Source of the DNA: an uncultured virus (IMG/VR IMGVR_UViG_3300046665_000305)
Lineage: Duplodnaviria; Heunggongvirae; Uroviricota; Caudoviricetes
Length of the DNA stretch: 57,575 bases
IMG/VR virus record: IMGVR_UViG_3300046665_000305
Coordinates: 62,001 to 119,575 of that record
Reading direction: 5' to 3' (one strand)
Positions 8,321 to 32,486 of the stretch are shown here, one piece after another. The notes under the pieces were generated by a model, which saw only the letters and a program-made list of their open reading frames with translations, was not told where the DNA came from and did not search any database. How positions within the stretch are numbered: the stretch's first letter is position 1; each line of letters begins with the position of its first letter. Made by a program: the position numbers and the translations under genes.

Positions 8321-9025
8321 ATGATGTACGCCAAGCCAAAAGCTAACGAAGTTATGCCTGAGACACGTGAAAGCTTGTGGAACGAAGGCACTGTTACGTC
8401 TCATCCCGCGTTCGCCATGATTGGCGCTAGCCGTGTCTCTGGTCATACCAATCTGTTCGGCAGTGACTTTCATCACAATAACTATATGGTGGTGCGGATC
8501 AAGGGAGCGGAATTTCATCGCAGCTTGAACCGAGACTGGCACATGGGCCGTGAGAGCTACATCGAAGTCGCAATGACTGAGTCTCAATGGGCCACGTTTG
8601 TTAGTGCTCCCAATATTGGCGACGGTACGCCTTGCACGTTGCAGCGTTTGAACAATAAATCTGTCCCCGGCATTCCTTCACTGGAACGGTCCAAGCTTGT
8701 CAAGATGGAAGTCGATCAAGACTTGGCCGAAACGGTTCGCTTCCTTGATGAAGCTCTTGCTGCTGTGGATGGGCTTGGTTTGTCCAAGAAAAAGGCAGAT
8801 GAAGTTTCATCAAAGATCAGGTCGGCTCGGAAGAGACTCGATGATCACATTCCTTTCGCGGCTCAGCAGTTCGGTGAATACGTGGAGGGCACGATAGAGA
8901 AGGGCAAGCAAGAGATTCACGGCTACATGATGAATATCATCACTAGGGCCGGGATTAACACGTTGCAAGGCCCTGAAAATAGTGCAACGCCGTTGCAAAT
9001 TAAGGAGGATACTGACGATGAATGA
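8321..9025 (+). CDS. hypothetical phage protein
   Basis: 234-aa ORF with promoter and AAGGAG RBS. Confidence 0.8.
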   Translation: MMYAKPKANEVMPETRESLWNEGTVTSHPAFAMIGASRVSGHTNLFGSDFHHNNYMVVRIKGAEFHRSLNRDWHMGRESYIEVAMTESQWATFVSAPNIGDGTPCTLQRLNNKSVPGIPSLERSKLVKMEVDQDLAETVRFLDEALAAVDGLGLSKKKADEVSSKIRSARKRLDDHIPFAAQQFGEYVEGTIEKGKQEIHGYMMNIITRAGINTLQGPENSATPLQIKEDTDDE

Positions 9026-27418: not shown

Positions 27419-29410
27419 TTAAAAGTTGATGTTGTAAAGTTTCTGGCCCGTTGCGGTCTTGACCAAAACAGGTAGTTCGGTACGCTTCGTGGAACTGAAA
27501 CCAATTCCGCTCAGCTGATCATCGGTAGGCTCGCACTTAGTCTTTGATCCAAGCACTTCGAAAACCTTCCGATGCTGTTCAAGTCCCGACTTGAGGAATT
27601 CGTTATAAATACCACGAGTCGGTTCTGGATTCAAGCAGTCCTTCAGAATAAAGAACCAATGCTTGTTACCTGTTGCATTATCATCCCAATAGTTAGGGCT
27701 GAGAATGATTGTGTTAACAGGAACGAAAGTTTCAGTCTTGATGCCCCATTTATCCTGCGGCATCATACCACCACTAACACCTTCGCCGGTAACGATAGCA
27801 GCAACAATACCATTCTTGACCGTGATCTTCAGCGCGCCAATCGTTCCAGCAACAGCCTTCGGATAGCTGAAATTATGAACCGAACCATTGTTTTCCACTT
27901 CAAGTTCGAAACCATAATCAATGTTTTCACGTCTGGTATATTGATTGACCTTGACAATATAGACACCATCTACAAGATTAGATTTGGTATAGCTGATGTT
28001 CTCTACCGGCTCACGTGAGCGCGCTCCAAAAGCATTCATATCAACATCAAGCTTACCTCTAGGATTGCCGAAGTAGATATGAGTCTTATCTGGTTCAATA
28101 ACATGGATATCCAAGTCATCATAGTTATGCCAAGCCAAGCTGATACGCAGTGCAGCGTTAGTTACGTTACCGCCAGCCTTAGCCACCTTTGCCTTGATAT
28201 CAGAGTCAGCAACTTCTCCGTCATAGCTCCAACCGAAGTTGTTATTCCACTTGAAAAGTTGCTCAACATCATCGTGAACCGGAGCGGTAAGGCTCATGAA
28301 ATTACCGGCAAAAGCATTCTTAACCAGAACGTCAATCGACTTAGCGCGCGGCACCACGTCAGCCATAAATGCCTCGATACCGATGTTTTCCGCCTTATCA
28401 ACATTAGGCTTCTTTGTCACAGCAGCTTCCATGAGTAGTGACTCAATGCCACCCTTCATCTTACCTACAACTGAGTTATCTACCCAAAGTACATTGTTGA
28501 CAGTAACGTCACCGATCCGAGCAAAACGCCGCTCCAATGCCGTTTCAAGGTTCAACTTCTCGATTGTCTTCATCGCGTCTTTAATCATGTTAGGCGTGAT
28601 GAGAGTCTTTGAACGCTTGTAATTGTCGCCAGCCATCTTTGTCTCGAAAGAGCCAACTGCCTTTTCCAAATCCTTGCCTTCGGTCAAGTCCTGCACCAGC
28701 GTACCAATTACCGTGTTACGAAAACCAGTAACAAAGCTATCGATATTGGCCCAAATGAAGATGTTACGTGCTTCATCTGAATTGAGCTTGTTGTACTCAC
28801 GCTGAACCGTGGCGAATGCATCCACAGCCGCCTTGTGTTCCGTGCCTCGATACAGAAGATCGTCTTTGATCAAATCCTGCACCGTGACAACTGCACCGCT
28901 ATCAAGCTCTTCCAGCGCCCGACGGAAGACCTGAGCCGCCGTAGCCTTCTTACCCTTAAACTCAGCCACTTCGGCGCAAATGTGCTTTGTAGCAATCTTC
29001 GTGTTGAAGTGATTCCAATTGATATTGGATTCAAAATCACGCGTCATCTCGGCACCAAAAGAATTCTCCTTGGTACGGAAGACGTTAGAGATTCCAAGGC
29101 CCTTAACCTTGTCGGAAAGAGCTTCGCAAACCACATTGAACGGATGACCCACATCAGCAACATCCCAAACTGAGACAAGCTGATTGTCAACGATAGCAAC
29201 AACGTTAGCAATGTTGCGCATGAAATTCTTGCAGCACGAGCAATCATACTCGCGGCGCTGACGAAACACTTCGTTTGTGCCAGCCGGAAACGAATCGAGA
29301 TAGAAATCCCAAAGTTCGTCACCTGAAATATTCACGGTGTAAAGCTCTTGCTTCGAAAGCGTGTCGAAATTGGCACGAATAGCCTTTGCGAATGGTCTAA
29401 AATCTGTCAT
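27419..29410 (-). CDS. large conserved phage protein with YfaP/DUF2135-like domain
   Basis: YDCSCCK N-terminus; LRISLAW..DDLDIHV.EP...LDVDMN...EPVENI. Confidence 0.8.
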   Translation of the reverse strand: MTDFRPFAKAIRANFDTLSKQELYTVNISGDELWDFYLDSFPAGTNEVFRQRREYDCSCCKNFMRNIANVVAIVDNQLVSVWDVADVGHPFNVVCEALSDKVKGLGISNVFRTKENSFGAEMTRDFESNINWNHFNTKIATKHICAEVAEFKGKKATAAQVFRRALEELDSGAVVTVQDLIKDDLLYRGTEHKAAVDAFATVQREYNKLNSDEARNIFIWANIDSFVTGFRNTVIGTLVQDLTEGKDLEKAVGSFETKMAGDNYKRSKTLITPNMIKDAMKTIEKLNLETALERRFARIGDVTVNNVLWVDNSVVGKMKGGIESLLMEAAVTKKPNVDKAENIGIEAFMADVVPRAKSIDVLVKNAFAGNFMSLTAPVHDDVEQLFKWNNNFGWSYDGEVADSDIKAKVAKAGGNVTNAALRISLAWHNYDDLDIHVIEPDKTHIYFGNPRGKLDVDMNAFGARSREPVENISYTKSNLVDGVYIVKVNQYTRRENIDYGFELEVENNGSVHNFSYPKAVAGTIGALKITVKNGIVAAIVTGEGVSGGMMPQDKWGIKTETFVPVNTIILSPNYWDDNATGNKHWFFILKDCLNPEPTRGIYNEFLKSGLEQHRKVFEVLGSKTKCEPTDDQLSGIGFSSTKRTELPVLVKTATGQKLYNINF

Positions 29411-29967: not shown

Positions 29968-30477
29968 ATGGATAAAGTATACACTGTTTATAAAATAACT
30001 AATAACATCAATAACAAATACTACATTGGAGTGCATCTAACTAATAATCCTTACGATGGATATTATGGCTCTGGCGTAGCCATTAAACAAGCAATAAAAG
30101 CACACGGTAAACATAATTTTAGAAAAGAAATACTATTCATAACTTCTTCTAAAGAAGAAGCTTATTTAAAAGAAATTGAATTAACTAATGATTACGATAA
30201 AAATTTCACCTACAATATGCGCTTAGGCGGTGTAGGTGGATTCACTTCAGAAGCAGCAAAAGCTGGCGCTGAGAAACGATTAGAGTTACACGGCCCGCTT
30301 AAAGGACGTAGCCCTGCATTGTTTTTGACCAAAGAAGAGCTTAGAGAAAATGGCAGGAAGGGTGGTTTAAAATTAAAAGGTAAACCAAAGTCGCCTGCTC
30401 ATGTTGAGGCTATGAAAGAATCTTATAAAAGGCGAAAACAAGTTTTGGTAGAGGATGCTGGAATCGAACCAACGTAG
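29968..30477 (+). CDS. GIY-YIG homing endonuclease (Seg-like)
   Basis: VYKITNNINNKYYIGVH, YYGSG, FRKEIL and YNMRLGG motifs; AT-rich; opposite orientation to neighbours. Confidence 0.9.
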   Translation: MDKVYTVYKITNNINNKYYIGVHLTNNPYDGYYGSGVAIKQAIKAHGKHNFRKEILFITSSKEEAYLKEIELTNDYDKNFTYNMRLGGVGGFTSEAAKAGAEKRLELHGPLKGRSPALFLTKEELRENGRKGGLKLKGKPKSPAHVEAMKESYKRRKQVLVEDAGIEPT

Positions 30478-30520
30478 AAACGGTTATGAGCCGCAGGCAC
30501 TACCATTGTGCTAATCCTCC
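30446..30520 (-). tRNA. tRNA with CAT anticodon (Met or Ile2)
   Basis: cloverleaf GGAGGAT...CT-CAT-AA...GGTTCGATTCC...ATCCTCT-A-CCA. Confidence 0.9.
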
Positions 30521-30530
30521 TTCTTAAAAA

Positions 30531-30620
30531 TGGCCTACACGGAGGGACTCGAACCCCCATTGATGTTATCGCCTCCAATTACGGTTACTAAGGGGTAGAA
30601 ACCCTGACCGGTACGTGTAG
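30531..30620 (-). ncRNA. atypical tRNA-like RNA (Arg-TCT-like loop, no D-arm, long extra region)
   Basis: acceptor stem CTACACG/CGTGTAG-G-CCA, T-arm GGGGG-TTCGAGT-CCCTC, hairpin AGGG-TTTCTAC-CCCT. Confidence 0.75.
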
Positions 30621-30625
30621 ATAGT

Positions 30626-31621
30626 TTAACTAATTAAAGCCGTGCCGAAATTAGCGCCACGCTTAACGAAAGTGAATGTACCTGTTACAGTACCATTAAT
30701 AACGTGAGGCATCATGTCGCACAAATCTTTCATAAAGACAACAAGTTTTTCACCTGTGGATCGCTTAAAATAGAAGTAAGCAGCACTGCGACCCCGCTCC
30801 ATAGAATCAAAAACTATCGTGTCTTCAAAGGCGTGATTATCACGCATCTCACATTCGACACGCCCATTGCCGCTCCAATAACTCTCAGGATAATGCAGCT
30901 GATTCCCGTTACGATCAAACGGAATTTTATAATTTCCAACTTTTTTAGCCATTGACAAACTCTTTCAGTTTATCAATGAAATCTTCAGGGAAGGTTTCTT
31001 CCACAATATTACCACCCATGGGAAGACAAAGATCACCATCCCATTCGGCTTTACGCCTAACCGTCACACGATAACCGCAGTCAACTTTAGTAATATTAAA
31101 GTAAGGCGGATAGCTTCCCGTATTGGGAGTATAACCAAACTGATCTTTCATATTAATCCGATCTAAATCTTTTTCCGTGATGAATACAATTCTTAGGAAC
31201 GAAGGTATCGCGATACACGCATAGATGCTCGCCTATCCCGTAACGAACCAGCGTTTCTTTCGCGGTCCAATCCTCTGGCACGTTCCTGAAAGAGCCAATA
31301 AATCTTGGCCCACTTTCGTAACGTTCATCATATATAAGAATGGTCTCGCCCATGATGCTAGTCTCCCTCCACGATCTTGAAATCCGGCTCTGGACCCCAC
31401 TTGAGGTATCCCGGCGTGTTCAAGGATTCGAATAGCATCTTTCCATCTCTTACGTCAACCAATTTCCAGCACGCGCCGTGCTCATTGATCCTGTTCTTGC
31501 CCTTGCGTGTAATCCCCTCAAGGATGAAGTTTTTAGACATGTGAGCCTCCATCCGTTTCTCGGCTTCTACACCGATTTGTAGTATTTTATCCCAATTTTC
31601 TTGAAGTAGTTTGATAATCAT
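30626..31621 (-). other. four small hypothetical genes inside the tRNA cluster (30626-30952, 30945-31151, 31153-31353, 31358-~31540)
   Basis: co-directional packed ORFs. Confidence 0.65.
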
Positions 31622-31635
31622 GACTACACCTATTA

Positions 31636-31862
31636 GAATTTCGTATTAGCAATCGGTCTCTCACCCATCCCTCATATCGTGGTAGCTAGCTCACGTATAT
31701 AAGTGCAACTCTCACGTTGCGCTAAACTTTGTACTCACCGCAAGCATCATCCGATTCAGAGTCGGAGCCTACATCGCAAGATACCGGTGAATTACTTGGC
31801 CAGCGCTAGCTAAGTAATCTCGCATATCTCAGCCCACGTCAATTCGTGGCATGAGTAATTCT
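31636..31862 (-). ncRNA. candidate structured ncRNA immediately downstream of tRNA-Lys
   Basis: no ORF; many hairpins and an AGAATT/AATTCT closing stem. Confidence 0.55.
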
Positions 31863-31939
31863 TGGTAGGCGCTGAGGGACTTGAACCCTCGACCCTCTGC
31901 TTAAAAGGCAGATGCTCTAACCAACTGAGCTAAGCGCCC
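31863..31939 (-). tRNA. tRNA-Lys(TTT)
   Basis: GGGCGCTTAGCTCAGTTGGTTAGAGC...CT-TTT-AA...GGTTCAAGTCC...CCA. Confidence 0.95.
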
Positions 31940-31949
31940 GAAGAAAAAA

Positions 31950-32074
31950 GGCTGGATCGAAGCAATGTTATCTCCCGTCGAAACGGCTTGTTACATTTAC
32001 TTTATCCATTCCGCTCGATCAAGGCTTTGCGCCTCTGTTCCAGCGGTTCAGTACCTGTCAATTCAGGTTGAGCC
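31950..32074 (-). ncRNA. candidate structured ncRNA
   Basis: GGCT/AGCC closing stem, three internal stem-loops including CCGT-TTCG-ACGG. Confidence 0.5.
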
Positions 32075-32080
32075 AAACTA

Positions 32081-32220
32081 TTTAGGAAGGGAACTGAGGG
32101 GAATCGAACCAAGTATCCTTATGTTTCTCTGCCAGTCGCAACCGCCTTCGAAACTACTTCTTTCCTCATTAGACCTTGAAGGAACAAGGTCATCAGCATA
32201 ACCAGCATTCCCCACCTAAA
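32081..32220 (-). ncRNA. candidate structured ncRNA with T-loop-like GGTTCGATTCC
   Basis: TTTAGG..GGGAA / TTCCC..CCTAAA terminal stem, GACCTTG/CAAGGTC hairpin. Confidence 0.55.
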
Positions 32221-32239
32221 CAGTTTCATTCAATTATAA

Positions 32240-32344
32240 AAACACAGCCCATAGTCTTCTCATAAGCAAGCCAACGGCCTGTTCTGTACCTCTTACTATT
32301 TGTAACCCTCGTGGCGCGAACGCTTCTGAGGGACGCTGTATTTT
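32240..32344 (-). ncRNA. candidate structured ncRNA downstream of tRNA-Leu
   Basis: ACAGC/GCTGT terminal stem, CCCTC..GCG-TTCG-CGC..GAGGG arm. Confidence 0.45.
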
Positions 32345-32355
32345 CATAACTCAAT

Positions 32356-32442
32356 TGGTACGGGCTACCGGACTCCAACCGGTACGACACAAAGGTCAAC
32401 AGATTTTAAGTCTGTCGTGGCTAGCAATTACACCAAGCCCGC
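32356..32442 (-). tRNA. tRNA-Leu(TAA)
   Basis: cloverleaf with ACAGA-CT-TAA-AA-TCTGT, long variable arm and CCA. Confidence 0.9.
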
Positions 32443-32457
32443 TCTTTTGATGATTCT

Positions 32458-32486
32458 AACTTAACACCAACTATCTGAAATGTCAA
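32458..32486 (-). promoter_or_regulatory. sigma70-type promoter of the tRNA/ncRNA operon
   Basis: TTGACA-N17-TAAGTT just upstream of tRNA-Leu. Confidence 0.7.

Follow-up and report, generated by a model that had tools for sequence, protein, structure and literature searches.

An array of apparently undescribed structured RNA families, gained, lost and reordered as cassettes, in a phage tRNA cluster

The role of the non-tRNA RNAs that are found in phage tRNA clusters, which include species 1 and 2 of T4 as well as GOLLD and ROOL, is an open question. Many GOLLD RNAs are longer than 800 nt, and ROOL is around 580 nt in length. Both are described, in passages of PMC12286853, as phage RNAs of unknown function that lie near tRNA islands and harbor palindromic kissing loops, which covary in GOLLD. 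Species 1 and 2 of T4, also referred to as rnaC and rnaD (NC_000866), are small (119-139 nt) non-coding RNAs within the tRNA cluster of that phage, and are annotated as stable with no function given. Theta ribozymes, by the account given in sections of PMC10879173, are minimal HDV-like ribozymes of gut phages, in which a structured RNA is found within a few bases of the 3' end of a phage tRNA.

The locus described here lies in a window of 57,575 nucleotides (the whole stretch of DNA that was analyzed), which makes up the final 57.6 kb of the record of an uncultured soil phage (119,575 bases, or 120 kb, with a completeness estimate of 65%). Sequence comparisons indicate that the locus, itself of a known kind, holds a genuine array of structured RNA families that are undescribed, adding five new small folds with covariation (weak for E2) that move as single cassettes. 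By its setting the locus resembles rnaC/rnaD, GOLLD and ROOL, but it is a member of none of them. As in T4, the RNAs are small and non-coding, and rnaC ends in a T-arm-like stretch, as do E2 and E5; unlike the T4 pair, there are five modules here, with different folds, and they are shuffled between strains. No homology between the T4 locus and the modules was detected by blastn and nhmmer, and models of E1, E3 and E4b gave no match on the whole T4 record, E2 and E4a being compared by sequence profile only. The near-tRNA location of GOLLD and ROOL is found here as well, except for E3 in phage Atu_ph07; in contrast to those RNAs, the modules are 80-140 nt in length, move independently and match no Rfam model. 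The kissing loops through which GOLLD and ROOL form homo-oligomers might have a counterpart here in palindromes, covarying in E4b (in one lineage) and invariant in E4a. Like theta ribozymes, E4a in the window and E4b in two relatives (L002 and L007) and a contig of metagenome run X1 begin no more than 5 nt from the 3' end of a tRNA; E1, E2 and E3 do not. In contrast to theta ribozymes, E4a and E4b show the covariation of four-way junctions, and the CCA is already encoded in the tRNA; no HDV-type match was found in Rfam, and a loose HDV-like descriptor of our own, run without a positive control, came back empty. A tRNA-like or Y-RNA-like (YrlA) identity was rejected, E1 to E4b having neither a model match nor a CCA, and no TROVE domain (Ro60) was found among the 106 selected ORFs covered by domain annotation of the possibly incomplete genome.

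The terminase of the phage shares ~40% identity with its counterparts in Sphingobium phage Lacusarx and Roseobacter phage DSS3P8, and seven IMG/VR loci carry terminases that are 79-89% identical to it. The cluster is spanned in four of these seven (L002, L003, L005 and L007); the L003 and L005 matches are identical, giving three distinct relatives, L002, L003/L005 and L007. Four rhizosphere DNA runs also contain pieces of the cluster region. The host probably belongs to the Rhizobiales, to judge from the RNAs held in common with Agrobacterium, Sinorhizobium and Ochrobactrum phages. Among the 106 selected ORFs, the first half of the genome (L338, L339 and L340) carries three RNA ligases, PNKP kinase-like and phosphatase domains, genes of NAD salvage (NAMPT, NMNAT-Nudix, PnuC and NadR-like), a ClpB-like ATPase and an RNA polymerase alpha-CTD protein.

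Table 1. Features of the tRNA cluster, with positions in the window
Feature	Position	Strand	Basis
Sigma70-type promoter-like site	32458..32486	-	Sequence; TTGACA, 17 nt, TAAGTT (weak -10)
tRNA-Leu(UAA), CCA encoded	32356..32442	-	tRNA calls
E1, three-way junction	32238..32345	-	Covariation against L002; loop identity
E2, multibranched RNA	32081..32220	-	Identity in L003/L005; diverged copy in L002
E3, four-way junction	31950..32074	-	Copies in L002, L003/L005, L007 and Atu_ph07
tRNA-Lys(UUU), CCA encoded	31863..31939	-	tRNA calls
E4a, 133-nt cassette, four-way junction	31729..31861	-	Covariation against L002; precise absence in X1 contig
E4b, compact four-way junction	31646..31725	-	Covariation, consensus fold, palindromes
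Four small co-directional ORFs (87, 66, 68 and 110 aa)	30626..31621	-	ORF list
E5, tRNA-shaped RNA, outside the range of the earlier note	30533..30620	-	Weak tRNA-Sec match; homologs
tRNA-Met(CAU)	30446..30520	-	tRNA calls

An earlier note, made from the sequence alone, had described an RNA-only operon led by a minus-strand promoter. Its tRNA-Leu and tRNA-Lys were both confirmed on that strand (Table 1). A promoter-like site was confirmed as well: a perfect -35 TTGACA (32486-32481) is followed, after a 17-nt spacer, by TAAGTT (32463-32458), the site is identical in L003, and L002 has TTGACA-17-TA just upstream of tRNA-Leu, but the -10 is a weak match, a consensus promoter scan did not list the site, and it is one of 45 TTGAC(A/T)-17-TA sites genome-wide. 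The RNA-only character found no support. No terminator-like site was found 3' of E4b, before the four co-directional ORFs that begin at 31621, and the predicted transcript therefore probably runs on through these ORFs to E5 and tRNA-Met; the ORFs would then probably lie on the same transcript as the RNA modules. ORF-like coding stretches are also found between tRNA-Leu and the RNA modules in L002. We regard a mixed RNA-and-protein operon as the probable arrangement. The 110-aa ORF belongs to phrog_22450, of unknown function. Within the elements themselves there is no credible sense-strand ORF, in agreement with the note, the longest sense ORFs of the cluster being ≤57 aa. An antisense ORF of 78 aa (31965-32201) was rejected, as the matching stretches of L002 and L003 are closed in all three frames. 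A gene for a GIY-YIG (SegE-like) endonuclease adjoins tRNA-Met on the opposite strand (29968-30477, +), which parallels the homing endonucleases of other phage tRNA clusters. Directly downstream of the cluster (27419-29410, -) is encoded a 663-aa protein of phrog_1735, a family of unknown function that is present in 556 phage records and is without a Pfam match.

Five structured elements are counted in place of the four originally described, as 31636-31862 splits into E4a (~31732-31857) and E4b (~31646-31725). These two are taken as separate modules because their order is reversed in L002, E4b occurs alone in L007, and one contig of run X1 joins tRNA-Lys to E4b, skipping exactly 31729-31861. 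The order in the window is Leu, E1, E2, E3, Lys, E4a, E4b, ORFs. In L002 it is Leu, two ORF-like stretches, E2, E1, E3, Lys, E4b, a short spacer, E4a, and in L003 it is Leu, E2, another tRNA-ended RNA, E3, Lys, with E4 absent and E1 missing from both L003 and L005. L007 has E3 between ORFs and E4b behind tRNA-Lys. The module order is thereby different in each of the three distinct relatives, and the modules undergo cassette-like gain, loss and reordering between related phages. From this reordering and the precise absence of E4a it follows that no module depends on a fixed neighbor, and the best reading of the sequences is that E1, E2, E3, E4a and E4b represent five independent small non-coding RNA genes.

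Terminal stems close E1, E2 and E3 at the ends that had been proposed for them. The folding energies of E1 (z -1.15) and E2 (z -1.09) are unremarkable, whereas those of E3 (z -4.86, a strong value) and the 227-nt E4 stretch (z -2.52) stand out, and single-sequence folding alone could therefore not decide; the evidence is comparative. Covariation was assessed on pairs with a probability >0.5 from the window sequence alone, with homologs aligned by sequence only, against a null of 2,000 relocations of the same substitutions and with 2-5 homolog rows per module (two sequences each for E1, E2 and E4a). The tRNA controls gave 4-8 compensatory pairs in 5/5 comparisons, and five coding regions gave 0-2 such pairs in 7/7 comparisons (p 0.19-1.0). 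The window-predicted folds of E1, E4a and E4b are kept by compensatory changes, resembling the tRNA controls. Covarying base pairs among homologs, on which the earlier note had staked its proposal, were thus looked for and found, and its several undescribed structured RNA classes can be upheld for E1, E3, E4a and E4b, from covariation and absence from Rfam, and less firmly for E2. The hairpins with TTCG or GNRA-like loops to which it pointed are present, but they cap variable stems and are not conserved. Two shared motifs, GAAUUGAC in E3 and E4a and AGGUAC(A/U)GAAC in E1 and E3, could be due to chance and are leads only.

E1 is built from a long closing stem, a side hairpin that varies, and an arm whose internal loop (13+11 nt) is rich in purines and invariant. 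Against L002, six of its 30 window-predicted pairs are compensatory and one is broken (null mean 1.2), and the internal loop is identical at 24/24 positions, compared with 44/60 paired positions. Loops and junctions that are more conserved than stems are as expected of a binding surface. E2 is identical at 140/140 positions in L003/L005, whereas adjacent coding DNA is ~87% identical in L003. One of its hairpins has an invariant UUCCUU loop, complementary to an invariant AAGGA elsewhere in E2, and the two may form a pseudoknot, a candidate that is without covariation of its own. Loop and complement are kept in both variants, as is a T-loop whose 2-bp stem directly precedes the closing stem. Automatic covariation of E2 against L002 was not significant (3 compensatory and 12 broken of 35 pairs, p 0.46), with the alignment off by one base in the first hairpin; when anchored by hand on its invariant loop, post hoc, this hairpin has three compensatory and one broken of seven pairs. 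The case for a conserved fold in E2 is weak. A hammerhead ribozyme was considered for E2 and rejected, as the CUGAUGA/GAAA words of the window copy are lost in the L002 homolog and there is no Rfam match.

E4a has a GAAUUGAC hairpin, a 3' arm that is nearly invariant, and a long arm with the palindrome AGCGCU, itself invariant, at its tip. Of its 44 pairs, nine are compensatory and seven are broken in the comparison with L002 (null mean 1.6). E4b has an invariant GUGAGA loop and a 10-nt loop that holds an 8-nt palindrome, AGCUAGCU, which is AACCGGUU in L007. Four of its 29 pairs are compensatory and none is broken against L007 (p 0.005), with two compensatory and three broken against L002 (p 0.04).

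E3 has a conserved GAAUU(G/A)AC hairpin loop and conserved junction sequences, with variable stem tips. Comparisons with its three relatives singly (L002, L003 and L007) gave one, zero and two compensatory pairs, none significant. A covariance model constructed from four copies and searched over 50 virus records matched the three relatives and one outsider, the Agrobacterium jumbo phage Atu_ph07 (MF403008:290177-290305; 47 bits, E 7e-10). This held-out copy is identical to the window at 72/123 positions, and among 32 counted pairs (one of 33 being omitted) 11 are compensatory, one is one-sided, three are broken and two are gapped. In a five-row alignment, which was fitted to the model and so leans towards it, 18/33 pairs change on both sides, compared with 5.6 +/- 1.8 in shuffled and 0-5 in slid controls. 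The Atu_ph07 copy is intergenic and unannotated, and lies behind a promoter-like TTGACT-17-TAATAT; the nearest ARAGORN tRNA call is 1.6 kb away, at the edge of the broad tRNA region of that phage. As E3 is without an adjacent tRNA in both L007 and Atu_ph07, tRNA linkage is not required. This is a stand-alone copy of E3 in an unrelated, culturable phage. The words "non-coding", "intron" and "ncRNA" do not occur in the main text of the Atu_ph07 paper (PMC6102473).

E5 has an acceptor stem, a T arm and a CCA, with no normal D arm, a 7-nt UCU-bearing loop and a long second arm. Its homologs are found in L002, in Sinorhizobium phage Phosso (PV764938, ~450930-451025) and in Ochrobactrum phage vB_OspM_OC; the core is ~95% identical, and the acceptor and T stems covary. 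L003 holds a tRNA-Arg(UCU) at the position of E5. A different tRNA-related element is seen in L007 (15406-15526, -) and Atu_ph07 (MF403008:68155-68280, -), in which the anticodon of tRNA-Lys(UUU) is split at the same site by a 48-nt insert. The insert is unannotated; it is preceded by a U, has a G as its last base and carries covarying stems together with a T-loop-like hairpin. The exons in Atu_ph07 closely match the insert-less tRNA-Lys of the window. The insert is possibly a miniature intron or a decoy.

In Rfam 15, no family besides tRNA reaches the gathering score within the cluster, and a scan at E<=10 gave weak unrelated matches only, in keeping with the earlier note, which could not assign the elements to any of the RNA families that it named. 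Comparison of the modules by blastn with 50,697 phage records gave tRNA or chance matches only, and the Atu_ph07 E3 found only itself in phage records. Models were built for E1, E3 and E4b, a loose E2 pattern being uninformative. The E4b and E1 models found relatives only in 50 virus records, all three models found nothing in five further rhizobial phages, and the E3 and E1 models matched 0/121 alphaproteobacterial genomes, in a search run without a positive control and with part of the candidates scored. Pattern scans of viral contigs gave true matches for E4b (2/8), E2 (3/68), E1 (one of 92, among the matches listed) and E3 (3/14, 4/8, and 4/6 including Atu_ph07); the remaining matches were judged by eye to be coding or chance. 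One metagenome scan with the E3 pattern returned 77 matches, none with the E3 fold on inspection, and a genome scan for E3 returned three, the best of which (9 bits, antisense to a phosphatase-like gene) was rejected. ARAGORN, run with introns at a low threshold, gave noise only. No description of these RNAs was found in a literature search, with supplements and subscription papers mostly outside its scope, and published catalogues of motifs that have yet to enter Rfam could include them.

With respect to function, we tentatively propose that the modules are stable RNAs that are cut from the tRNA transcript and serve in trans as decoys in a conflict with the host at the level of RNA, a possibility that we place somewhat short of probable. 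The modules would be co-transcribed with tRNA-Leu and tRNA-Lys from the upstream promoter-like site as one early transcript, in which RNase P would cut at the tRNA 5' ends and RNase E-type activity in the short A/U-rich spacers. Such cuts by the host are a part of established tRNA processing, and processing of the modules from a tRNA precursor is plausible. The stem-closed RNAs so released would be exonuclease-resistant and stable. In the least certain step, invariant loops on variable scaffolds would bind and titrate host RNA-binding or RNA-cutting proteins in trans; the targets would most likely be anti-phage defenses, with the RNAs acting alongside phage tRNAs and RNA-repair enzymes. The five modules need not have one common function. 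Known phage RNA decoys include pseudo-ToxI repeats and RNA anti-CRISPRs, which mimic a known host RNA. The proposed titration of a host defense protein by a phage RNA is shared with them; in contrast, neither a mimicked host RNA nor a target protein was found for the modules (Rfam; E3 and E1 models over 121 genomes), which counts against the decoy reading. Phage tRNA as a decoy or supplement against tRNA-cutting defense (Septu) is discussed in part of PMC13096335. In favor of decoys are the covariation, the independence from neighbors, the stand-alone E3 and the loop conservation in E1. The modules are also patchily present among close relatives and shared between unrelated phages of one host group, as is typical of conflict genes. 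The RNA ligases, PNKP and NAD salvage genes provide context, together with two tRNA shells with large anticodon inserts, but RNA repair genes are widespread among large phages and are no pointer to these RNAs. The non-significant automatic tests of E2, and of E3 against single relatives, also weigh against the proposal, as do the two sequences apiece for E1, E2 and E4a. The position of E4b directly 3' of tRNA-Lys in L002, L007 and X1 fits a cis role instead.

In such an explanation the modules would be cis-acting spacers, or else hitchhikers that are close to neutral and left over from tRNAs or mobile elements, and their folding would serve only to keep the precursor processable. Each module is dispensable in some relative, and an origin in tRNA genes is suggested by the T-loops, the cloverleaf-like junctions and the insert-bearing tRNA shells. 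Neutral spacers, however, would not be expected to retain the complete identity of E2 in L003, the E3 junction sequences in an unrelated phage or the invariant E1 loop, and we regard this explanation as quite unlikely. Assembly is rather unlikely too, though it can coexist with decoy action: E4a and E4b at least would be self-assembling miniature analogues of GOLLD and ROOL that form dimers or oligomers via palindromic kissing loops. The change in the E4b palindrome between the window and L007 comprises four substitutions that make up two complementary pairs, one of them between adjacent bases, a kind of change used in part of PMC12286853 as evidence for intermolecular pairing, and the apex of E4a is kept while the stem below it covaries. 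This change is confined to one lineage, however; four changes in eight positions form two symmetric pairs in ~6 of 70 cases, the outer change is also compatible with a short stem within one molecule, capped by a CNNG loop, and a conserved palindrome was not noticed in E1-E3 on inspection.

It is improbable that the modules are small RNAs that regulate host or phage mRNAs by base pairing through their invariant loops. The promoter-like site of the stand-alone E3 in Atu_ph07 would suit such a role, as would the invariant UUCCUU of E2, which we take to resemble an anti-Shine-Dalgarno sequence, but this stretch has its invariant complement within E2, the invariant loops are short (6-8 nt) or buried inside junctions, and a conserved intrinsic terminator was not found. 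Also improbable, in our estimation, is a new class of ribozyme among the modules, at least one of which would excise itself or mature the neighboring tRNAs in the manner of theta ribozymes. E4a and E4b do start 1-3 nt behind the CCA of tRNA-Lys, the internal loop of E1 and the putative pseudoknot and T-loop of E2 resemble tertiary cores, and the tRNA-Lys anticodon insert of L007 and Atu_ph07 covaries. Set against this, no Rfam ribozyme or (in the uncontrolled descriptor search) HDV-like match was obtained, the hammerhead-like words of E2 are not retained in L002, the tRNAs already encode CCA, and E3 is found away from tRNAs.

A broader reading, which is doubtful, is that rhizobial phages possess a mobile repertoire of small RNA genes, with at least six undescribed families, that are exchanged as cassettes across unrelated lineages and make up an RNA-only layer of counter-defense. 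Some members would assemble by palindromic kissing loops, the pool would include tRNA shells with conserved, structured anticodon inserts, and, with the same doubt, the 48-nt intron-like element would be far smaller than known self-splicing introns. The presence of E3, alone, in the isolated phage Atu_ph07, and of E5 in isolated Sinorhizobium and Ochrobactrum phages, provides systems that can be tested in the laboratory.

Further non-coding modules, each in a single lineage, are found in L003 (17615-17740, -), where the module has a terminal T arm and CCA-like tail, in L007 (16455-16565 and 15135-15310, -) and in L002 (15818-15862, -). In vB_OspM_OC (L414, MT028491), ~1.3 kb (~1590-2900) separates the E5 homolog from a tRNA-Asn; this stretch is annotated with tiny ORFs on both strands, contains several promoter-like sites and repeated ACAGCAA-containing units, and is possibly another RNA array. 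Finally, a second promoter-led cluster lies just before the window (L008 ~8370-9020, genome ~60370-61020, +). It is without an Rfam match and encodes two tRNA shells, in which inserts of ~190 and ~150 nt replace the anticodon loop, with additional T-arm hairpins between them; the shells are conserved in G001.
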